Positions 5,679-40,702 of a stretch of DNA of 64,000 nt are shown one piece after another. Source of the stretch: an uncultured Candidatus Saccharibacteria bacterium (GTDB lineage Bacteria > Patescibacteriota > Saccharimonadia > UBA4664 > CAZJNH01); NCBI GenBank assembly GCA_964478595.1, contig CAYZIN010000003.1, positions 1,357 to 65,356 of the forward strand. The letters are read 5' to 3'. A model generated the notes under the pieces. That model was not told the DNA's origin, did no database searches, and worked only from the letters and a program-made list of their open reading frames with translations. The stretch's first letter is position 1; every line of letters starts with the position of its first letter. The translations under genes were made by a program, and so were the position numbers.

Positions 5679-8600
5679 ATGTCCGGAGAGGGAATTAGTC
5701 CGGACGCAGGGGGTGAAGTAACAGGGGCTTTTTCGAGTCCAGATTTGGCGACGCCAGCCCCCGACGCACCGCACAGAAATCCCGAGCCGGGTACAGTAAT
5801 TCACCCTAATGGGCTGGAGGTACATCTGGTCGGCGCCGATGCTAATGCCCGCGCGCGGGACGAAGCTGATCGCCGAGTAGATAGTGAAGTAGCCGAAAAA
5901 GGTCTTTTGACTAGAATCTGGAAGGGCAACCTTGCCAAAGATTATTACTCGATGAAGTACGAGAGGGAAGAGCGCGCCAAGATAGAAGCGGCCGGCACGC
6001 CGTTTCTAAATGAAGAGGAAGCCACTAAAACCATCGAACGCTTTGCCAGCGAAGCCGAAAGCATGGTCGACACCGAAGCCGGCGAGAGTAAGGTTGAATT
6101 GTCTGAATTGCCCGGCGGCAATGAATTAAAGGATCAGTTTAAGGCTCTTATCAGGGAAGTGGCCGAAAAAGACATGTCCCGGCCAGCGTTTGAACAAGAA
6201 AAAACTAGGCTTATTAACGAAGTAGCCTCCAAGAATCCGGAGTTAGCCAAAGCCGGACTCCAATACGCCGATAACATCGAAAAGATTGCCGAACAAGTCG
6301 AAGCTAGGGTCGAGGCCGGCGAGGTTCTGGATAATTTATTGGCGGAGACGAAGATTTATCTAGACCGCGCTCGTGCCGGTGTTCGGACCGAGGCTCAGTA
6401 TGGCGCGATCGACCGCGTGTTCGAAAAGATTCGCAGTCACGGCCTTAGCGCGGTGGCAAATGAAGGAGTTTTGGCTACCGCTATTTCAGTTGGCTACACA
6501 GCGGCTCGCTGGAGCGGCCGACGAGCAGTAGCAGTAGTAGGCAAAATGGCGATTCCTGGAATTTCCAGTGGAATTTTAGCCGGCATGCGTGAAAACAAAT
6601 TCATGAAAGATGAACGTCGTCGTCACAATCGTGAAATGGCCGAAGGTATGCAAACTACCGAAGCGGCGTCGCGGCGGCGGATCGAGCTTGAAAACGTTCG
6701 CTATGAAACAGCATCTAGTAAAGATTTAGTCGACGCCCTGAATTCATCGTTGTTTGAAACCGACCCCGAAGGTAAGAGGGTCGAAAGGGATCTTGGTGGA
6801 GACGAATTGGTTGATGCTATGCACTTGGTGGCAGAGATCGATGCTCGTCGCCAGTTATCTAACCGAATGAGAATTGATCTGATTACTTTTAGCGACAAGA
6901 CTACGGTCGAGCAGGAGCGGTTTGAGCTTTATAAATCGGTATCCGAGGCGAAGACTATCCTGGCCAAGCAATTTGAGGCTGGGGACGACACGTTTAAGGC
7001 TGAAACTTTGGGAGATAGTACTTTTGCAGATGCGCTGGCTAGTTTGAGATATATTGAGGTTTCTAATCTCGGAATACATATTGAGCAACAAGACCGAGCG
7101 TTTGATCATTTACGGCGGGTAGAGGTTGCTAAGGCCGCTGCCAAAGGAGTTTTGATCGGAGCGACGATCGGCCTGATCGCGCAAGAAGCAACCTCCTTCT
7201 TGCGGGCCGACCAGACTGGACTTCTCGAACACGCGCTTCATCACGGCGGAAATTCCGAGCGCGCTCATCAAACCCTGCTGCTTAGTATTTTTGGTCGTCA
7301 CGAAGTTGGCCACCTAAGTGCTCACGATGCGCTGCCTGGCGGCAAGGGTGAGGTACAAATGCCCAAAGGCGTGAGCTTAACTCATGACGCCAATGGCAGC
7401 TTTAGCCTGCACGACGGTGGTAAAGAAATTGCCCATGGTTTGAAGTTTAATAACGGTCAGATGGATCCGGGAACTAAGGCAGCCTTGACCCATGCTGGTT
7501 ACGTTATCCAATCGGAACACGTACAGTCCGGCACCGAGGCGGTCATGCGCACTCCGGATCAGTTAATTGCCCACCATTCGGGAGATTTTAAAACAGTTAA
7601 TCGGCAGCTGTGGTACGACAACAACACTCCGCAATTTGACCGCAATGAACTTGGGTTAGGATGGGCGGGAACGAACGGTCTGGACGCAAATGGCAACTAC
7701 ATTTACTCGGTGGCCCATATGACCGTTGGCGGTTCAACTCACGCCGGGCTTTCGGCTAATGCCCAACAATTGGTGTCCGAGGGCCGTATGAAACTGTTAA
7801 TTTCGGCGTCTCGAGAAACGCAAAACCGCGCGCTAGAGTTGCCGGTGCGTGCCGATGGTACTGTGCTGATTGCCAAAGATAGCTTGGCCGGAAGAGCCTT
7901 TTTCCAAAACTCCGGCTGTCACGCGGTATTTACTGGGAAATTTGCGGAAGTCGCCCAAACTACCAGCAGTAGTAATGGCGTGGATAATTTCCGTATTTTA
8001 GCTACCGAAGTTGGCCCAGGCCAACCGCGCTTTGTTGATCTTAATCCGAAGGACCTATTTATCACCCGTATTCAGTTGCCACCAACCATAGACGTACCGC
8101 CGATTATTCCAATTTTCGGGCGTGAAGCTTTGGGCGAAGCTGAAGCGCCGGAAGACCAAAACGCCAAAACGATTGAAATTCCGGCAGTGAAGATCGAAGA
8201 GACGCAGCCGGAAAAGGAAGCGCCGGAAAAACCGCTAAGTTTATTTGAACTAAAAGAGCGGGCTCGGGTGGCGGTGGGAGAACTCAAAAATAGTAGCGTG
8301 ATTACCCCGGCCGAACGCGAAGTGATCGCAGCCAATATTGGTCGAATTACTCAAAACATGCAGCGCCGAGAGGTAACGCAATCGGATCTGGCCAGTTTGT
8401 CGGCGATGTTTATTAACTTGAACCAAAAAGCTCCAGAGCAAATGCCGGGCAATTTATTGCCTCATTATGTTCAGTCCTTATTGGCGGTAGATAATCAACT
8501 GGCTCGTCAAAAAGAGGTTGGATGGGAGATTGGCGAGTCAGCCCGAACCGTTTATCCGGCTGCGAAACCTTTCGAAACTGGCGAAGCCGATGAGCGTCCG

Positions 8601-9305
8601 AGGCCACCGTCGTTAACTCTGTTTGAGCTTAAAGAACGGGCCCGGCAAGCGGTTGGCGAAATGAAAAATAAGGGCGGGATTACCCCTGCGGAACGAGAGG
8701 TCATCGCTTCAAACCTAGGTCGGATTACTCAACGGATGAACCGGCGCAACGTCACGCAATCGGATCTTTACAGCCTATTTTCAATTTTCACAAAATTGCA
8801 TCAGACCGAACCGGACTTAGTGCCAAGAGACGATTTAGAGTCGATCAACGCTTCGATTTTGGCGGCCGATGGAAAGCTGGGCAGTCAAAAAGATGAGGGT
8901 TGGGAGATAGGCGAGTCAGCGCCGACGGTTCACCCCTCGCCCAAACCCTTCGAGGTTACCGCCAAGCCGGTCTCGCCATCAGTCGATACCGACGCCCCTC
9001 CCAAGACGCCAGGCTATTTAAGCCGTGAAAATTTCCTCAACCGGGCCGAAGAGCGTGGTCGAATTCCAGTTGATGTTGATGCCTCACCCGAAGCCGCTCC
9101 ACCCACAGATGTTGATGCAACTCCTGCTTCGCCGGAGGAAGAGCCTGAAGTTAAAACCGGCCCGGCGATTTGGCGCAATAACGACGCCGACCTGCCGGTT
9201 GAAGTTGAGGGTTTCGCTGGAACGCGTGACGGGCGAGCGTACGTCAATGTCCTCGGTAGTGCCACGGCATTGCCACTTGATGAAATTGTCTACCCCGAGG
9301 GTTAG
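5679..9305 (+). CDS. Giant (1208 aa) membrane-anchored protein with coiled-coil N-region, two tandem 125-aa repeats and an acidic Pro-rich C-terminus
   Basis: The reading frame is long and uninterrupted. Hydrophobic helices lie around aa 265-310 and 490. There is an internal tandem repeat (PxSLxLFELKERAR...GWEIGESA) and a DVDASPEAAPPTDVDATP C-terminal tail. Confidence 0.7.
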   Translation: MSGEGISPDAGGEVTGAFSSPDLATPAPDAPHRNPEPGTVIHPNGLEVHLVGADANARARDEADRRVDSEVAEKGLLTRIWKGNLAKDYYSMKYEREERAKIEAAGTPFLNEEEATKTIERFASEAESMVDTEAGESKVELSELPGGNELKDQFKALIREVAEKDMSRPAFEQEKTRLINEVASKNPELAKAGLQYADNIEKIAEQVEARVEAGEVLDNLLAETKIYLDRARAGVRTEAQYGAIDRVFEKIRSHGLSAVANEGVLATAISVGYTAARWSGRRAVAVVGKMAIPGISSGILAGMRENKFMKDERRRHNREMAEGMQTTEAASRRRIELENVRYETASSKDLVDALNSSLFETDPEGKRVERDLGGDELVDAMHLVAEIDARRQLSNRMRIDLITFSDKTTVEQERFELYKSVSEAKTILAKQFEAGDDTFKAETLGDSTFADALASLRYIEVSNLGIHIEQQDRAFDHLRRVEVAKAAAKGVLIGATIGLIAQEATSFLRADQTGLLEHALHHGGNSERAHQTLLLSIFGRHEVGHLSAHDALPGGKGEVQMPKGVSLTHDANGSFSLHDGGKEIAHGLKFNNGQMDPGTKAALTHAGYVIQSEHVQSGTEAVMRTPDQLIAHHSGDFKTVNRQLWYDNNTPQFDRNELGLGWAGTNGLDANGNYIYSVAHMTVGGSTHAGLSANAQQLVSEGRMKLLISASRETQNRALELPVRADGTVLIAKDSLAGRAFFQNSGCHAVFTGKFAEVAQTTSSSNGVDNFRILATEVGPGQPRFVDLNPKDLFITRIQLPPTIDVPPIIPIFGREALGEAEAPEDQNAKTIEIPAVKIEETQPEKEAPEKPLSLFELKERARVAVGELKNSSVITPAEREVIAANIGRITQNMQRREVTQSDLASLSAMFINLNQKAPEQMPGNLLPHYVQSLLAVDNQLARQKEVGWEIGESARTVYPAAKPFETGEADERPRPPSLTLFELKERARQAVGEMKNKGGITPAEREVIASNLGRITQRMNRRNVTQSDLYSLFSIFTKLHQTEPDLVPRDDLESINASILAADGKLGSQKDEGWEIGESAPTVHPSPKPFEVTAKPVSPSVDTDAPPKTPGYLSRENFLNRAEERGRIPVDVDASPEAAPPTDVDATPASPEEEPEVKTGPAIWRNNDADLPVEVEGFAGTRDGRAYVNVLGSATALPLDEIVYPEG
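8232..8960 (+). repeat. Two tandem copies of a repeat of about 375 bp (125 aa) inside the giant gene
   Basis: Copy 1 begins PLSLFELKERARVAVGELKNSSVITPAEREVIAANIGRITQNMQRREVTQSDL. Copy 2 begins PSLTLFELKERARQAVGEMKNKGGITPAEREVIASNLGRITQRMNRRNVTQSDL. Both end in GWEIGESA. Confidence 0.8.
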
Positions 9306-18804: not shown

Positions 18805-20139
18805 CTAGATCGCGTTGTTTGCGATGATTCTGGCGTAGGACCAGGCGCTGGGCCTGATCGTCCGTTCAAGCGAATTGCGATCCACATGGATTAGGCCAAA
18901 TTCTGGCCAGAATCCCTTATCCCATTCGAAGTTATCGAGAAGGGACCAGTGGAAATATCCGCGCAGGTCGACGCCGTCTTGAATCGCCTTCAGGCACCAT
19001 TGCAGCGACTCGCGGAGGTAACGTTCGCGGTGAACGTCCCGGAAATCGGCCAGGCCGTGTTCCGTGATAATCACCGGCTTCCCGCGTGTCGCTTTGTGAT
19101 TCCGAAGTTGGATCAGCACTCGGTACAACCCTTCGGGGTACAACTCCCAGCCCAGGTCCGACCGCCACGCGTCCGGCTTTTGGCCGGCGAATGGCTGGCT
19201 CAGTTTGTAAACCTGGTGCATATAGTAATTCAGTCCGACAAAGTCTTGCCGATCCGAGGTTGCGCGGTGGAACGCCCACATACTGTGGTCCACAAACGCC
19301 TTGATGCCTTTGCTGATCGGATCACGGGCTGAGTCGTTGCAGCTTAGGTTGACCGCCGAGCTAACGACTGCGCCGGGCACGAGTTCGTGAATGATCTCGT
19401 AACTCCGGCGGTGGCACTCAACCAAGTTCCGGCTTACCTTGCGGAAGTTCCGGTAGCTGCCATTCTGCGGCGGCCACGGCGGAGTACCGATCGCGAACTT
19501 CGGGCCGTAGCTGAGCAGGGAGTAAACCTCTGGCTCATTCAGAACCAGCCAGTAGGTAACTCCCTCGCCCGCCAATGCCTGAACGGTGGTCCGTACATAC
19601 TCCTCGAACCGCCGCGCGGCGTTGTCGCCGAGCCAGGCGCCTTCCTGCTCAAACCAGAGCGGGTGACACCAGTGCCAGAGGCAAACGACCGGCTCGATAC
19701 CGCGAGCCTTGCACGCCCGGATGACCCTGCGATAATGCTCGATCTCGTCGGGCTCGATTAGGCCCGACACCGGCTCGATTCGCGACCATTCGATCGAGAA
19801 GCGGTAGGCCTTGAGACCCAGTTGCTTCGCGAGATCGAGATCGTCTTCGAACCGCTGGTAGTGCTCGCAGGCTCCCAAGGAGAGATAGTTGCCCGGGTCC
19901 TTGGCTTGCCGTTTGATCATAGGCCAGATCTCGGGCGGAACGCCACGGCCGTTGCCGTAGTCTTTGTTCTCGTCCGCGTCGTCTGCCAGTTGGTAGTTCT
20001 TCTCGAACTCATAAGCCGACCATTGATCGTTGCTGCCGCCCTCGACCTGATGGCCCGAGGTTGAAGCGCCCCAGAGGAAACCTTTGGTGAAACCGCCGGT
20101 GACCGGCTGCATTGCGAATCCTTTCGCTCGTAGGAACAA
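18805..20139 (-). CDS. Glycoside hydrolase family 1 beta-glucosidase
   Basis: It has the N-terminal FLWGASTSGHQVEGG motif, LVLNEP (acid/base) and ITEHG (nucleophile, a variant of ITENG). GC is markedly higher than in neighbouring genes. Confidence 0.85.
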   Translation of the reverse strand: MFLRAKGFAMQPVTGGFTKGFLWGASTSGHQVEGGSNDQWSAYEFEKNYQLADDADENKDYGNGRGVPPEIWPMIKRQAKDPGNYLSLGACEHYQRFEDDLDLAKQLGLKAYRFSIEWSRIEPVSGLIEPDEIEHYRRVIRACKARGIEPVVCLWHWCHPLWFEQEGAWLGDNAARRFEEYVRTTVQALAGEGVTYWLVLNEPEVYSLLSYGPKFAIGTPPWPPQNGSYRNFRKVSRNLVECHRRSYEIIHELVPGAVVSSAVNLSCNDSARDPISKGIKAFVDHSMWAFHRATSDRQDFVGLNYYMHQVYKLSQPFAGQKPDAWRSDLGWELYPEGLYRVLIQLRNHKATRGKPVIITEHGLADFRDVHRERYLRESLQWCLKAIQDGVDLRGYFHWSLLDNFEWDKGFWPEFGLIHVDRNSLERTIRPSAWSYARIIANNAI

Positions 20140-20247: not shown

Positions 20248-21525
20248 TTGCAGATGAGCTCGAAGTACCAAAGCGTGAGGGGGATGAACGATATTTTGCC
20301 TGGGGAGCAGGCAAAATTTGATCTGGTTTCGGCCACCTTCGAGAGTCTAGTTAACGCAGCCGGCTACGGCAAAATTGCCACCCCTATGCTAGAAGCCGCC
20401 GAATTATTCCATCGGACCGTTGGTGAAGAAACTGACATCATCTCGAAAGAGTTATACGAGTTTGAGGATAAATCGGGGAACAAAGTGGCTTTACGGCCCG
20501 AATCCACCGCTCCGGTAATGAGGGCATATCTGGAGCATGGGATGGGAAGCCTCCCTAAGCCGGTTAAGCTCTATTATATTGGGCCGATGTTTCGCTACGA
20601 ACGCCCACAGGCTGGCCGCAATCGACAACATTACCAGGTTGGCATTGAAGCGATTGGATATGACGCGCCGAGCCTGGACGCTCAGGTGATTATGTTGGCA
20701 CTACGGTTTTACCGACGTTTGGGCGTTGCCGGGGTTAGCCTTCAGATTAACAGCGTTGGAGATGAAAATTGCCGGCCAAAATACATCAAAACGTTGACCG
20801 AGTATCTGGAAGGCCACCGCAAGCAGCTGTGTGAAAATTGTAATAATCGACTAAAAACCAATCCGTTGAGGGTCTTAGACTGCAAGGATGAAGGTTGCCA
20901 GAAGATTCTAGACGGCGCGCCGCAAATGCTTAATTCGCTGTGCAAAGCTTGTCACGCTCACTTCAGGGGAGTTTTGGAGTATCTGGACGAGCTAAACGTA
21001 CCCTATGAGCTAAATCATCGCTTGGTGAGAGGGTTAGATTACTACAACCGCACCGTATTCGAGTTCTACGGGGCTCGCGAGGGGGCCCAAAGTAGCATTG
21101 GGGCGGGTGGCCGCTACGATGGGCTAGCTGAGCAGCTAGGAGGGCCGAAAACGCCCGGAATTGGCTTTGGGATAGGTATAGAAAGAGTTCTTCTGGAGCT
21201 TGAGGGTTCAGGAGCGGAACTGCCCGAAGCCGACCCACCCCAGGTTTATGTGGCATCGTTAGGGGAACCGGCCAGGATCGATGCCTTCAGGTTAATTGAA
21301 CAGCTTTTAGATAACGATATTTCGGCCGTTGGATCGGTCGAAAAAGATGGAATTGCCTCGCAACTCTCGAAAGCGAATAAGACCAAGGCCCCTTACGCAG
21401 TAATCATTGGCCAGAAGGAGGTTTTTGATAAGGTGGTGATAATTCGAGATATGAAAAACGGTGCCCAGGAGAGCGTTCCCAGAGCCAAAGTCCTATCTGA
21501 AATACAGGCTCGCCTCGATAGATAA
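20248..21525 (+). CDS. hisS: Histidyl-tRNA synthetase
   Basis: It shows class II aaRS motifs, an HisRS-type GAGGRYDGL motif and a C-terminal anticodon-binding domain. Confidence 0.9.
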   Translation: MQMSSKYQSVRGMNDILPGEQAKFDLVSATFESLVNAAGYGKIATPMLEAAELFHRTVGEETDIISKELYEFEDKSGNKVALRPESTAPVMRAYLEHGMGSLPKPVKLYYIGPMFRYERPQAGRNRQHYQVGIEAIGYDAPSLDAQVIMLALRFYRRLGVAGVSLQINSVGDENCRPKYIKTLTEYLEGHRKQLCENCNNRLKTNPLRVLDCKDEGCQKILDGAPQMLNSLCKACHAHFRGVLEYLDELNVPYELNHRLVRGLDYYNRTVFEFYGAREGAQSSIGAGGRYDGLAEQLGGPKTPGIGFGIGIERVLLELEGSGAELPEADPPQVYVASLGEPARIDAFRLIEQLLDNDISAVGSVEKDGIASQLSKANKTKAPYAVIIGQKEVFDKVVIIRDMKNGAQESVPRAKVLSEIQARLDR

Positions 21526-29911: not shown

Positions 29912-30000
29912 TTATTTCTTCGAACTGTCTGGGGGGCGGAGCATCTGTGAGGGTGCAGTTGCTTCGCTGCCTGGACGGTCTACGAAAGAAAGGAACGCAA

Positions 30001-32754
30001 GTGACAGTTACGGAAATCAAGCCGTACGAAGAGCTGAAGGCTCGATTGGCGGAGGAGTTCGAGTTGGAGAAGGCGCGCAAGCCTTCATTCACCGAGAACT
30101 CGCGTACTACCTTCGACCTTCGATACTCAGTGAAGAACGAGGCCGGCGAACTGTCGGAGGATCCCCGCGAGGCGATCTGGCGGGTAAACTCCAACGTCTC
30201 CAGCATCACCCCGCTTTACTCGGGCTACCAAGGAACGACGGAGCCGGCGGAGGTTGATCGCGACACGGTGCCGTTCCCGCTGAAGCAGGCAGTTCGTCAG
30301 TACAACTGGTTGCTGAAGCAGGATCGGGTGCATTGCTCGTTCGAGGAACTGATGACCCACGGGGTCGACCAGTGGATCGAGCGGGCTCATACGTACCAGG
30401 AGATGGCGACGAGTTGGGACCACGTGTTCAATTCGCCGACTTGGACCGGAGCGGGGACTGGCCTGATGCAGTTGGCCGCTTGTTTCGTCCTGCCGATCTC
30501 CGACGACCTCGGCCGCGGCCGCTCGAGCATCTTCGAGACGCTCAAGGTGGCGGCGCTGATCCAGCAGACCGGCGGGGGCAATGGCTTCTCCTTCTCGGCG
30601 CTGCGCCCCAGCGGATCGCTGGTCCGGCGCAGCATGGGCAAGGCGACTGGGCCGATGGGCTTCCTCGAGGTCTACAACGCGGCCTTCGGCGTGATCGCTC
30701 AGGGTGGTTCGCGCCGGGGTGCCAACATGGGTGTGCTGCGAGTCAGCCACCCGGACATCCGGCCGTTCATCCAGTCGAAGGTTGTCGAGGGAGAGATCGG
30801 CAACTTCAACCTGAGCGTGGCGATCGAAGACGCGTTCATGGACGCCGTCGAACGCGACGGCGACTGGGTCTTGCAGTGGAAGCTCAACTCGCCGACGGAC
30901 GATCCGGTTGACTACCAGTTGACCGAGACCATCCGGGCGCGGGAGCTCTACGACGAGATCGTCAAGAACGCTTGGGTGATCGGAGACCCCGGCAACCTGT
31001 TCATCGATCGAGCCAACCGGGACAACCCGGTGCCGAAGCTCTACGTTCTGGAAGCCACCAATCCCTGCGGGGAACAGTGGCTGCCGCCGTATTCGAACTG
31101 CTGCCTCGGCTCGATCGCGGTCGTCAACTTCGTCGAATGGGACGAAGCGCGCGGTTGTTACGTCATGAACTGGGAGCGGCTGCGTCAAACGATCGTCCTG
31201 GCAACCGAAGCGCTCGACGACGTCATCGACGCCAACGCCTACGTTCCGGAAGTTCCGGAGCTGGAGGCGGCGGCGCAGGGCGAGCGGCGAATCGGGTTGG
31301 GCCAGATGGGCCAAGCGGATGCCATGATCAAACTCGGCATTCGTTACGGCGCTGCGGACGGTCTCGACTTCGCCAGCCAGCTGACGGAGTTCGTGCGTTA
31401 CCACAGCATGCTGACGTCGATTCGGCGGGCCAAAGAGCGCGGACCGTTCGAGTGGATCGAAGATTCGATCTACGATCCGAAGTTGCTGCGTGAACTCGGT
31501 CCCGGGGCGGAGATCTCAGGCGAAATGACCGATGGCAGCGGGCGGATGTACTCGTCGCGGCTATGGCAGCCGCCAACGCCGCTGGTCAAACACGAACGCG
31601 ACTTCGGCCGGCCGGACTGCGACTGGATCGTCGTGACCGAAGGCATCATGGAGCACGGCATCCGCAACGCCTGTCAGCTGACCATCGCCCCGACCGGCAC
31701 CATTGGTACTGTGTCGGCGATGGAGGGCTACGGCTGCGAACCGCTGTTCGCGCTGATCTACGAGCGGACGGTGATGCAGGAAGGCAAGGACATCAAGCTC
31801 TACTACCTGTCACCGCTGTTCGTTGAGGCTCTGCAGCGCGCCGGTATCGACGACGCGACGCAGAAGAAGATCCTGGACAAGGTCAAGGAAACGGGGTCGT
31901 GCCAGGGGATCGAAGAGGTGCCGGCCGAGATCCAGAATGTGTTCGTGGTGTCGGCCGATGTGACCGGCGATGAGCACGTTTGGACGCAGGCTGTCATCCA
32001 GCGGTTCGTCGACAACTCGATTTCCAAGACCATCAACCTCCCCAAAGAGGCGACGGTTGAGGACGTGTCGGCTGCCTACAAGCTGGCTTACCAGCTCGGT
32101 TGCAAGGGCATCACGGTTTACCGGCAGGGTAGTCGGGAACGTGAGGTTCTGGCAACGGGCAAGGGCGACCAGACGATCGATCCGGATCACTGGCCGTTCA
32201 TCGAGCCGATGCCGCTGCCCGGCTACGTCGAGACGGTGGGTCTACCGACGCGGACACTGCGGATGCCGACGCCGTTCGGTAAGCTTCACGGGTATCTGAC
32301 GGAGCTGGTCGAACACCCGGGGCGTCCGTTTGACACACGGCTGCAGTTCGGTAAGGCCGGCAACGACAAGGCGGCCGACATCGAAGCCATCGGTCGGTTG
32401 ATCTCGCTGTGCTTCCGGGCGGGAATCAACGTCAAGGATGTGGTTGACCAGCTCGAAGGCATTGGCGGTCAGAGTCAAATCGGGTTCCGCGACCGGAAGG
32501 TGCGGTCTTCGCCCGACGCGATCGCCAAGACCTTGAAGCGGCTTTACATGCCTGAAGAGTGGGCAGCCGACTACGCTCTTGACACCCCAACCAACGGCTC
32601 AGCGCCCACGGTTGTGGCGGAGCCGGCGGCTGTGAGCAAGCCGCGCGGTGATTTGTGCCCGGAGTGCAAGAACTACTCGGTAGTTCACATTCAGGGTTGC
32701 AAGTACTGCAAGCGGGAGCTGGGGGGCTGCGGCAAGCAGCTCAACTGCGACTAG
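30001..32754 (+). CDS. nrdJ: Class II (adenosylcobalamin-dependent) ribonucleotide reductase with C-terminal zinc ribbon
   Basis: It has the TNPCGEQWL active-site motif and class II-like domains. The C-terminus is CPECKN...[19 protein letters not shown] is about 63%. The start is proposed as GTG 30001 with an AAAGGA RBS. The ORF-track GTG at 29947 is also possible. Confidence 0.9.
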
Positions 32755-38423: not shown

Positions 38424-38729
38424 ATGAAAGCAGTTATACAAACAGGCGGAAAACAGTATCTGGTCGAAAAGGGCCAGACTTTAAACGTGGAATTATTGAA
38501 CACGGCCAAAGACAAGGCCGAGTTTGCGCCGCTTTTAGTAATTGACGGCGACAAAACTCAAATCGGCAAACCGACGGTTGAGGGTGTGAAGGTTAAGGCC
38601 GATGTTTTGGGCGAAGCCAAGGGAGATAAGATTAAAGTAATGAAATTCCGTAATAAAAAGCGGATCAAGAAATTGACCGGCCACCGCCAACGCTACTCCC
38701 AAATCAAAATCACCGCCATCGGCAAGTAA
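38424..38729 (+). CDS. rplU: 50S ribosomal protein L21
   Basis: It has L21 sequence (MKAVIQTGGKQY...) and an AAGGAG-like RBS. No rpmA follows. Confidence 0.9.
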   Translation: MKAVIQTGGKQYLVEKGQTLNVELLNTAKDKAEFAPLLVIDGDKTQIGKPTVEGVKVKADVLGEAKGDKIKVMKFRNKKRIKKLTGHRQRYSQIKITAIGK

Positions 38730-38744
38730 CACTGTCCGCAAATC

Positions 38745-38771
38745 AGCGCCTTGAAAAGGCGCTTTTGGTTT
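38745..38771 (+). terminator. Intrinsic terminator after rplU
   Basis: The hairpin is agcgcctt-gaa-aaggcgct, followed by tttggttt. Confidence 0.65.
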
Positions 38772-39331
38772 GCTAAGATTCTGGCCTGTTCTGCTGAAAC
38801 TTGATAGCTGAATTGGTTTGAGTTGACTAAGTTGGCGGATACCTTGAATCGTCATCGCCTCGCAGGAGGTGTGTGACGTTTGTAGGGCAGCGCCCGCTGG
38901 GGGCGGATTTGGCGAATAATCATCGTGGCCATCGCGGTGGTTACATTCGACCCAGTCTCTGTGGAGGACAACGATTGGTTGTCTCGCCGATGTTGATCGC
39001 TTTAGCTTCCTAGCTTGGGTCTGGCTGGCAAGCTTCCACACCGGAAGCCACACGCCCGCAGTAGCCGGCCAGATCCATTTTTTGAGTGAGACGCGCGCCT
39101 CCTTGGTGAATCTCGGGGGAGAGCGCATCATCATGGCCGCGTCTCACTCAATTTTTCGGACCGGCTCTGGCACGGTCCACTGGCTCGGTGCCGAAGAAAT
39201 TGCGGCGGAGCCTTACGCCGCAGGGCCTTCTTGCGGGCACCGAGCCCAGTTTCCCGGCAGCTTTGGGACTTCCCTTTTCCAGGGATCTCCCTGAAGCTGC
39301 CGGAGTTTCACCGGAATAGATACCCGGCCAA

Positions 39332-39364
39332 CCCCCGACCTCACGGTCGGGGGTTTCCTTTTTG
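39332..39364 (+). terminator. Strong intrinsic terminator inside the ORF-free region
   Basis: The hairpin is cccccgacc-tcac-ggtcggggg, followed by tttcctttttg. Confidence 0.65.
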
Positions 39365-39373
39365 ACCGCCCCG

Positions 39374-39402
39374 TTGACAAGCACTTTGGCTGGGAGTAGT
39401 AT
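39374..39402 (+). promoter_or_regulatory. Consensus promoter TTGACA-17-TAGTAT
   Basis: The -35 is at 39374-39379 and the -10 at 39397-39402. No ORF with an RBS follows it. Confidence 0.55.
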
Positions 39403-39408
39403 CTCGTC

Positions 39409-39769
39409 TTGGTGTTGACATTGTGGCCGATGCTCACGGCAGCACTCTCGAGGGATTCGAAAAGCCGCTATTTCGCCCTGCATCTGCGGGTGTCGTGCGA
39501 GATAGTGGGTTCGTTTCTATCACGGGAGAGGGCTTTCGGGCCCGGGTTCGACTCCCAACGGCCACGCTGCAGTAGTTTCCGGCCCAAAGGGGGACGGAAA
39601 AAGGGCGGCAATGCCCACGAGTTTTCCGAAAGGAGTGATAGGTACGATGACCTCTGGTCGCACTCTGTCTGAGGATTTCTATGGGATCAACATCGACGCG
39701 ATCGACGCGACGACGGCGTAGTACACGCCACTTGCAGTCGGAGACCCCGGGGCTATACGCCCCGGGGTC
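39409..39769 (+). ncRNA. Candidate structured ncRNA of about 360 nt with a tRNA/tmRNA-like T-arm motif; identity unresolved (tmRNA-like or tRNA-like Y-RNA-like)
   Basis: The segment is bounded by a consensus promoter and a strong terminator. It contains UUUCGGGCCCGGGUUCGACUCCC (compare the E. coli ssrA 3' region UUUCGGACGCGGGUUCAACUCCC). A 7-bp GUGGCCG/CGGCCAC pair at 39423 and 39560 encloses about 137 nt. A short tag-like frame reads ...INIDAIDATTA*. No convincing protein ORF is present. Confidence 0.3.
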
Positions 39770-39780
39770 ATCCTTTTTAT
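39743..39780 (+). terminator. Intrinsic terminator (11-bp GC stem + T-run) ending the ncRNA unit upstream of parB
   Basis: The hairpin is gaccccggggc-tatac-gccccggggtc, followed by atcctttttat. Confidence 0.7.
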
Positions 39781-39820
39781 AACGCGGTAATGCTAAAATA
39801 CGCTTTAGTAGGAGGTTGTT

Positions 39821-40702
39821 TTGCCAAAAGGGCAGAGTTTTCAGTCTTTAATTCCCACCGATCTAGTCGAGTTGCAGTATGACATAACTGCTTCTGGTGA
39901 CGAGGTTGCTCAAATTGACCCCGAAATTATCGATCCCAATCCTCATCAGCCGCGAAACAATTTTGACGAAAAAGAACTCTTTGCGCTAGCGGACTCAATT
40001 AAACTTCACGGTATTTTGCAGCCGCTAGTTTTAACACCGGCCGGTAACCGTTTTCATTTAGTGGCAGGTGAAAGAAGATTACGAGCGGCCAAAAGCTTAA
40101 GTCTAACGGCGGTACCAGCTATTGTCCGCGACTTTAATGAACAACAAAAGGTTGAGCTGGCCCTAATCGAAAATTTGCAGCGGGCGGAACTTAATCCAAT
40201 CGAAACGGCAACGGCCTACCAAAAATTAATCAGCCAATTTAATCTTTCCCACGCGGAGGTGGCCAGGCGGATTGGGCGAGATAAATCAACTGTGACCAAT
40301 ACCTTACGGCTTTTGGGTTTGCCAGAGCGAGCCAAGGAAGCGCTAGTTAACGGCGAAATTAGTGAAGGGCACGGCCGGGCGATTTTAACTTTGCACGATC
40401 CCGAAAAAAGAGCCGAGCTAGTCGATTTGGTGATCAAAAATCATTACAGCGTCCGCCAAACCGAAGAGTTTGCCAGAAGCTACGGCCGGCACGAACAAGG
40501 CCGGGAGCGAGCCTTTAAACGAGTGGCTGGCTTTAGCGGCGGGGATGAAATCTCCAAGAAATTAACCAAACTGTTGGGCAAAAAAGTCCAAACCCTACCT
40601 ACGGCTGTAGGCGGCCGGTTGGTGATTTATTTTAACGACGAATCAGAACTTGAGGTTTTGGCCGAGGCGATTGAGCGCGGCTGGAAGGGGAAGATTAAGT
40701 AG
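39821..40702 (+). CDS. parB: Chromosome partitioning protein ParB/Spo0J
   Basis: The start is TTG with a GGAGG RBS. It has the ParB box GERRLRAAK and an HTH region. Confidence 0.85.
   Translation: MPKGQSFQSLIPTDLVELQYDITASGDEVAQIDPEIIDPNPHQPRNNFDEKELFALADSIKLHGILQPLVLTPAGNRFHLVAGERRLRAAKSLSLTAVPAIVRDFNEQQKVELALIENLQRAELNPIETATAYQKLISQFNLSHAEVARRIGRDKSTVTNTLRLLGLPERAKEALVNGEISEGHGRAILTLHDPEKRAELVDLVIKNHYSVRQTEEFARSYGRHEQGRERAFKRVAGFSGGDEISKKLTKLLGKKVQTLPTAVGGRLVIYFNDESELEVLAEAIERGWKGKIK

Follow-up and report, generated by a model that had tools for sequence, protein, structure and literature searches.

The spacer between the genes for ribosomal protein L21 (rplU) and ParB in the window, i.e. 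the whole stretch of 64,000 nucleotides analysed here, raises the question which kind of RNA is specified by a segment in which a T-arm-like motif, a perfect 7-bp pair of strands and a short reading frame are found close together. From these elements, the initial annotation had considered a divergent or circularly permuted tmRNA and, as a fallback, a tRNA-like module as in bacterial Y RNAs. The window represents a housekeeping region of a Saccharimonadia (CPR/TM7) chromosome, the homologs of its ParB being assigned to Saccharimonadia by their sources. Around the segment, the gene order is IleRS, HIT, FtsW, two small ORFs, L21 (38424-38729), a spacer of 1.1 kb, ParB (39821-40702), signal peptidase and LytR. 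The spacer itself is devoid of a credible protein-coding gene. In this housekeeping context, among the approximately 55 ORFs of the window, no integrase, reverse transcriptase, SmpB or Ro60 gene was detected, and tblastn revealed no parA gene anywhere in the 64-kb window. Here, parB follows straight after the noncoding spacer (38729-39820) without a parA or glycosyltransferase gene, an arrangement that is also present in L040 and probably in L043, the loci for comparison being L003, L077 and L080; in more distant relatives, genes for a glycosyltransferase and ParA are located between those for L21 and ParB. A degraded parA or glycosyltransferase gene as the source of the spacer was considered and rejected, the best tblastn value obtained with the ParA and glycosyltransferase sequences of L003 and L006 being E = 0.1. 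A phage or other mobile origin of the spacer was rejected as well: blastn against phage genomes yielded no match, and neither an integrase nor a reverse transcriptase gene is located nearby.

In the second half of the spacer, a promoter is followed by sequences that can be arranged like the arms of a tRNA. The parts of this unit are listed below; L043 and L057 are related contigs harboring a homolog, and transcription is inferred to start near 39409.

39374-39402, + strand: sigma-70-type promoter TTGACA-17 nt-TAGTAT, 10 of 12 positions in a consensus scan; hexamers and spacing identical in L043
39409-39422, + strand: putative 5' leader UUGGUGUUGACAUU of 14 nt, 100% identical in L043; its role is judged from the position of the acceptor stem
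39423-39429, + strand: 5' strand of the acceptor stem, GUGGCCG, tRNA-His type; perfect 7-bp pairing with 39559-39565, identical in L043/L057
39431-39444, + strand: D-arm-like hairpin UGCU-CACGGC-AGCA with GG in the loop, from the MFE fold; the L043 counterpart is GCUC-AUAGG-GAGC
39445-39528, + strand: long irregular hairpin in the anticodon-arm position (about 84 nt, about 30 bp, UGCG tetraloop), from the MFE fold
39530-39543, + strand: UUCG-tetraloop hairpin GGGCU-UUCG-GGCCC in the variable-arm position, specific to the window, within a 12-nt insertion relative to L043
39544-39556, + strand: T arm core GGG-UUCGACU-CCC, the sole GGTTCGANTCC in the window; L043 has a full 5-bp arm
39559-39566, + strand: 3' strand of the acceptor stem, CGGCCAC, and discriminator G, without encoded CCA; pairs with 39423-39429

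The T-arm-like motif GGGUUCGACUCCC noted in the initial annotation is indeed present at 39544-39556 and is conserved in L043, with only three clean stem pairs in the window, GGG/CCC, enclosed by two C.A mismatches. On its own it is not significant, because its T-loop GGTTCGACTCC, matched once in the window (39545-39555), is expected about 0.21 times by chance and at least one match was obtained in 20 of 100 shuffled sequences. The 7-bp pair GUGGCCG (39423)/CGGCCAC is perfect as described there, its 3' strand starting at 39559 and not at 39560. GTGGCCG occurs 13 times in the window, and the chance of a copy within about 200 nt upstream of a given partner can be estimated at about 0.04. Counted from the 7-nt T-loop, the acceptor 3' strand begins exactly 5 nt later, and next to the 5' strand comes a hairpin containing GG; this spacing of acceptor strands, T-loop and GG hairpin is tRNA geometry. 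A 7-bp acceptor stem is found in both the window and L043, and a T arm with a UUCRANY loop abuts its 3' strand, the order of the arms being acceptor 5' strand, D, long arm, T, and acceptor 3' strand. The + strand folds more stably than shuffled sequences, with z = -4.3 (371 nt) and z = -3.9 (146-nt module). The third acceptor pair is G3-C70, and the discriminator G is followed by CUG in the window and by CAA in L043. The caveats recorded earlier, three clean T-stem pairs, no G3-U70 and no encoded CCA, are all confirmed.

To place these features in context, syntenic contigs were fetched through relatives of L21. In L043, whose L21 is 90% identical to that of the window, a homolog of 39368-39568 is located at 1128-1320, directly after the L21 gene (nhmmer, E = 1.3e-17; 153 bits with a covariance model made from the window and L043). 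L057, a JGI soil contig, does not differ from L043 in the 132-nt module and the sequence immediately flanking it, leaving two distinct sequences of the element. These two do not differ in the promoter hexamers, the distance between them or the 14-nt leader; identity drops to about 80% in the body, and the flanks are unalignable. Homology ends at the discriminator, so that promoter, leader and module are shared and nothing further. The T arm of L043 is a canonical 5-bp arm, GCGGG-UUCGAUU-CCCGU, abutting CGGCCAC; relative to it, both outer pairs of the T stem are C.A mismatches in the window, which also carries the 12-nt insertion with the UUCG hairpin in the variable-arm position; the final two C's of this hairpin (39530-39543) occupy the place of these outer pairs. 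Since the promoter and the leader of the homolog are identical to those of the window and its 5-bp T arm is canonical, a genuine tRNA-like module is present; we regard this homolog as decisive evidence against a chance arrangement, and the fallback part of the initial annotation, a tRNA-like module, is supported by it.

Conservation of base pairs was evaluated in a curated comparison of the two sequences. Of 46 pairs, 34 are unchanged, six show changes on one side but are still paired, one is compensatory, and five are broken, three of them in the window. The 30 pairs of the long arm are distributed similarly, with 22 unchanged, five changed on one side and still paired, one compensatory (A-U to G-C), and two broken in L043. 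In the D stem, three of the four homologous pairs of L043 are retained in the window. In an RNAalifold consensus, derived from the same manual alignment and not from the curated model, 37 of 43 differing columns are unpaired. With two sequences, this pattern is suggestive, constituting weak covariation support for a conserved structure. Compensatory changes, which had been named in advance as a check on the proposed stems, were accordingly seen at one pair in favor of them, with the five broken pairs against.

Relative to another hairpin element, module X (see below), the tRNA-like unit is placed upstream in L043 but downstream in the window; it was thus retained through a rearrangement. The long arm has no further copy in the window or the related loci, an argument against its being a mobile insertion. 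At the rplU-parB locus of the nearest other lineages, L040, L044, and L075, the element is absent. A scan of the genome contigs anchored on ParB yielded only distant ParBs of at most 48% identity and no homolog of the RNA. A metagenome scan with the pattern of acceptor stem and T-loop was set aside as a source of further members: it returned mostly tRNA-His genes behind a chance upstream GTGGCCG, L057 being the sole true homolog. In viral sequences, the pattern GGATTCGAAA..GGGTTCGANTCCC retrieved two ordinary tRNAs, and a three-anchor pattern of the long rod had no match.

Could the RNA act as a decoding tRNA? A 5-bp anticodon stem with a 7-nt loop (U33, anticodon, R37) is absent from the module. 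Because the irregular hairpin of about 84 nt takes the place of the anticodon arm, the RNA is unable to read a codon. A8 is present in the module at the position of U8, which is near-universal in tRNAs, and a true L-shape is therefore not assured. The Rfam tRNA model gave no match at E <= 10 in 38500-40000 and none at E <= 1 in L043, and the gathering score of the family was not reached. ARAGORN detected no tRNA or tmRNA in the whole window, also when introns of up to 150 nt were allowed (-i0,150, default thresholds). A decoding tRNA with an unusual insertion, either containing an intron or acting as amber suppressor through UUCGU-UUCUAnn-AnGGG with the anticodon CUA, is nevertheless conceivable: UUCUA is conserved in the window and L043, and a weak 'tRNA-Pyl (cta)' was called by ARAGORN on the 3' half of L043/L057, in the window only at the 80% threshold. 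This call, however, relies on a poor acceptor stem and a poor D arm, leaving the perfect GUGGCCG strand unused, the CUA loop would contain U37 and C38 in the window according to our own reading of the sequence, and the CUA hairpin competes with the better-supported long arm. In addition, rplU of L043 ends in TAG, and this codon is therefore not reassigned in the lineage. The insertion required would fall between D and anticodon arms, and we know of no bacterial intron type at this position. A tRNA-His with a spliceable intron was rejected by manual inspection, since no exon junction restores a GUG anticodon loop, and ARAGORN with the -i option gave nothing. Altogether, a decoding function is considered unlikely.

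A protein-coding function did not hold either. The 87-codon ORF starting with TTG at 39409-39672 was rejected on account of frame-shifting indels and a stop in L043, and three-frame translations revealed no reading frame inside the module common to the window and L043, and no common stop. Insertions and deletions of 1 nt and unshared stops in all frames exclude both a protein-coding reading and a shared internal tag.

The last point bears directly on the proposed tmRNA, either a divergent one-piece molecule or a circularly permuted two-piece version with DAIDATTA as tag. There are similarities. The T-loop GGUUCGACUCC is adjoined by an acceptor strand as in the tRNA-like domain of tmRNA; in tmRNA (RF00023, including the mRNA-less jakobid mitochondrial RF02544) acceptor stem and T arm likewise close a middle part that is not an anticodon arm, and a long helix likewise emerges at the position of the anticodon stem. 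The only Rfam match in L043 is one of 15 nt to the T arm of tmRNA, with 13.6 bits compared to a gathering score of 47. The short frame ending in DAIDATTA-stop, and thus in Ala-stop, exists at 39647-39721. Its surroundings, located downstream of the module, are the following.

39567-39742, + strand: 3' extension specific to the window, with two hairpin domains and a 24-codon frame; absent from L043
39647-39721, + strand: 24-codon frame MTSGRTLSEDFYGINIDAIDATTA, M..DAIDATTA-stop, with AUG start and upstream AGGAG
39743-39779, + strand: intrinsic terminator, an 11-bp GC stem (hairpin 39743-39769) with a loop of five, and a U-run

In L043 the module is followed by a different sequence, the 3' 200 nt or so of the window being missing. 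Outside the window, the extension was detected only in L001, a short contig matching 39624-39779 with E = 6e-44, and no Pfam match was obtained for it. The candidate tag frame opens with AUG behind a Shine-Dalgarno sequence and is missing from L043/L057; it is not part of the conserved unit. A 13-nt stretch of the 3' strand of the long arm (39511-39523) is 85% complementary to the region from the Shine-Dalgarno sequence to the AUG of this frame (39635-39647). Through such pairing, translation of the mini-frame could be linked to the folding of the module; the complementarity could also be due to chance.

The defining features of tmRNA are not displayed by the element. It has G3-C70 instead of G3:U70, discriminator G instead of A, and no internal frame common to the window and L043, and it possesses a D-like stem; the tmRNAs we know of lack a D stem. 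With ARAGORN, no tmRNA was called in the region at default or -ps thresholds, permuted models included, and lowering the threshold to 80% gave only two unrelated permuted calls with other 'tags'. Infernal searches with the Rfam models for tmRNA, its alpha, beta, and cyanobacterial versions and mt-tmRNA had no hit at E <= 10 in 38500-40000 and none at gathering cut-offs in the window; the two-piece models RF01849-RF01851 (alpha, beta, cyano) are among those without a match. As to permutation, the module is closed locally by a 5' acceptor strand (39423) that is located upstream of the T arm, and a second GTGGCCG-like strand with up to one mismatch is absent from 39566-39800. No smpB gene was detected nearby, i.e. 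among the ORFs of the window. The tmRNA readings are contradicted on defining features, and we consider them extremely improbable.

A bacterial Y RNA of the YrlA type, in which a tRNA-like module is placed on a Ro60-binding stem, was the other suggestion. Both RNAs are non-decoding, about 100-150 nt long, and have D and T arms resembling those of a tRNA. A terminal stem is formed in the 371-nt MFE fold by the leader UUGGUGUUGA and by UCAACAUCGA near 39690, and in L043 a 6-bp equivalent, UGUUGA/UCAACA, can be read 7 nt past the acceptor stem. YrlA, however, is organized differently, with the T arm followed by a closed acceptor stem-loop and then the D arm, all inside the terminal Ro60-binding stem (PMC4201824). 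In the element, D precedes T and the acceptor stem is open, which amounts to a circularly different topology. Moreover, the conserved YrlA motif GNCGAAN0-1G is absent, no TROVE/Ro60 or RtcB gene is present among the ORFs of the 64-kb window, and no Rfam model of the Y RNA type matched in 38500-40000 at E <= 10. This assignment is therefore very improbable, with wrong arm order, motif and partner gene lacking in the window. Similarity would extend to processing, since YrlA of M. smegmatis is cleaved by RNase P and has CCA added to it (PMC4201824), the same route as proposed below for the element.

A relationship to tRNA-His emerged from the acceptor stem. A pattern of this acceptor and, after a long gap, the T-loop with CGGCCAC was matched at 26 metagenome loci, and in 22 of these the 3' match was located inside a tRNA gene called by ARAGORN. 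Twenty of the 22 genes specify tRNA-His(GUG), the remaining two tRNA-Gly, and the acceptor stem was therefore classified as tRNA-His type. Beyond GUGGCCG/CGGCCAC, the D stem GCUC/GAGC with its GG loop matches the recovered tRNA-His genes (family RF00005), and the T arm of L043 is one loop base off their GCGGG-UUCGAGU-CCCGU; T arms like that of L043 are, however, also present in other Saccharimonadia tRNAs. Like tRNA-His, the element has its own promoter with a short leader. The missing CCA is uninformative by itself, because bona fide Saccharimonadia tRNA genes in L003 do not encode it either. In contrast to tRNA-His, the element has neither anticodon arm nor GUG anticodon and carries the 84-nt hairpin instead. 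U-1 and G73 are found in place of G-1/C73, the identity pair of bacterial tRNA-His, and A8 in place of U8. The gap between acceptor and D stem is 1 nt in L043 and 2 nt in the window, and the element stays under the Rfam tRNA threshold and is invisible to ARAGORN. It is thus read as derived from a tRNA-His gene, not as a tRNA-His itself.

The main and serious rival is a decaying pseudogene. According to this reading, a tRNA-His gene was duplicated and lost its anticodon arm to an insertion of a hairpin of about 80 nt, the product being transcribed from a tRNA promoter and functionless. The window copy does show a weakened T stem of 3 bp with two C.A mismatches, the 12-nt insertion, and loss of one pair of the D stem. 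His identity elements, G-1/C73 as well as the anticodon, are gone, five of 46 pairs are broken, the distribution is very narrow with L040, L044, and L075 lacking the element, and other malformed tRNA-like genes are present in the corresponding spacer of relatives. On the other hand, two lineages with unalignable flanks, and with the unit at different positions of the spacer, share an identical promoter and leader and a module of about 80% identity. Substitutions are mostly outside helices or preserve pairing, and there is no other copy of the arm in the window or related loci. Decay to a pseudogene is possible, but in our view less probable than function. We lean slightly towards a functional gene at 39374-39566, specifying a tRNA-derived, non-decoding tRNA-like RNA which would be processed in the manner of a tRNA and would function either as a module for processing or stability or as a mimic. 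The element is contained in no curated family and would be a kind of tRNA mimic, and we infer that it does not serve as an adaptor, be it in translation or in trans-translation.

For such a functional RNA, the following pathway can be envisaged. RNA polymerase would start near 39409, and the minihelix of acceptor stem and T arm together with the D/T elbow would render the transcript a substrate of tRNA-processing enzymes. Processing by RNase P is probable; the predicted cut is at 39422/39423. A 3' nuclease and the CCA-adding enzyme would act after G39566, and a stable tRNA mimic of about 144 nt would be released, in this genome detached from the 3' 200 nt or so that carry the mini-frame and the terminator. 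The RNA could serve noncoding transcripts of the rplU-parB spacer as a tRNA-shaped module for processing or stability, or as a tRNA mimic. Signals of the mascRNA type on MALAT1 are eukaryotic and are located at the 3' end of the partner RNA. Common to both is a non-decoding tRNA shape which, by recruiting RNase P and RNase Z, would set the ends of a co-transcribed noncoding RNA. The element differs from those signals by its location at the 5' end and by a promoter of its own, and its processing is a prediction here.

Additional RNA elements are found in the same spacer of relatives. Module X consists of a conserved 14-bp stem, CUGGCUYGGYGCC...GGCRCCRAGCC(C)AG, followed by a U-run; its apex is variable and two pairs covary. 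It was detected at the following positions.

39179-39257 of the window: module X
L040 10556-10634: module X
L044 1657-1735: module X
L075 1546-1600: module X
L076 1864-1925: module X

It is always located in the rplU-parA/parB spacer of this Saccharimonadia clade and matches no Rfam family. In the window, it is part of a second promoter-to-terminator unit upstream of the tRNA-like gene (38751-39362), with TTGAAA-17-TAAGAT at 38751-38779 and a terminator at 39330-39362. This unit of about 580 nt contains several modules consisting of a hairpin and a U-run, and it is without an Rfam match.

Two of the related spacers also harbor tRNA-like genes. The gene at 1717-1787 of L076 scores 42 bits on the Rfam tRNA model and has a bulged acceptor and a loop CCGGAUG; the one at 4521-4590 of L077 scores 51 bits, has G3.U70, and its anticodon arm is 4 nt short. 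Both exceed the Rfam tRNA threshold, and both anticodon arms are non-functional. Like the element, they are located downstream of rplU among hairpin modules and have kept acceptor, D, and T arms, but they are of normal length (about 70 nt) and differ in acceptor sequence. With the model made from the window and L043, they reach only about 15 bits each, and common descent with the element is therefore not supported. The recurrence of non-decoding tRNA shapes in the rplU spacer is notable all the same. As a tentative extension, which we would not yet rate as probable, the element could be the first member of a so far undescribed class: tRNA-like RNAs of Saccharimonadia that are transcribed from a promoter of their own, do not decode, and combine a tRNA-His-type acceptor/D/T core with a long rod in place of the anticodon arm. 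Together with the L076 and L077 genes and the covarying module X, it would characterize the rplU-parB spacer of this clade as a site of conserved noncoding RNA, and the tRNA shape would serve RNase P/CCA processing or act as mimic or decoy.

If functional, the RNA would add a new member to the tRNA mimics, in a CPR bacterium from a minimal-genome group, and would exemplify a tRNA acceptor/T/D core kept under selection with the anticodon arm freely replaced. To our knowledge, no tRNA-like regulatory RNA has been described in CPR bacteria. A full-text search of the literature for 'tRNA-like' together with 'Patescibacteria' retrieved no paper, and searches for tmRNA and tRNA-like RNAs in Saccharibacteria, Patescibacteria or CPR yielded nothing relevant. 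Genes of such a kind are missed by tRNA and tmRNA finders as well as by Rfam. For the annotation of this genome, a false tmRNA candidate is removed.

Three long tRNA-like RNAs of 130 to 138 nt with the same tRNA-His-type acceptor were encountered elsewhere, at L047 471-606 (+), L048 6404-6541 (-), and L070 6439-6568 (+). Two of them are located in viral contigs, and none is called by standard ARAGORN. The L047 RNA has an encoded ACCA end, and in the L048 RNA seven hairpins, three of them T-arm-like, are enclosed by one acceptor stem (fold z = -4.5). Their assignment, together with L055, to a common family with the element was rejected: the scores are only 18-28 bits and come from the acceptor stem and T arm by which the sequences had been selected, and the inserts are unrelated.

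Some further observations concern the remainder of the window. The 1208-codon ORF at 5679-9305 has no Pfam match. Relative to the GC content of about 50% in the window, the ribonucleotide reductase gene (29947-32754) is high with 59-63% in 1-kb windows, as is the gene for a glycoside hydrolase of family 1 (18805-20139) with about 60% at 19-20 kb; both may have been acquired horizontally. The histidyl-tRNA synthetase gene (20248-21525) is located 18 kb from the tRNA-His-type element, with no evident link between the two.
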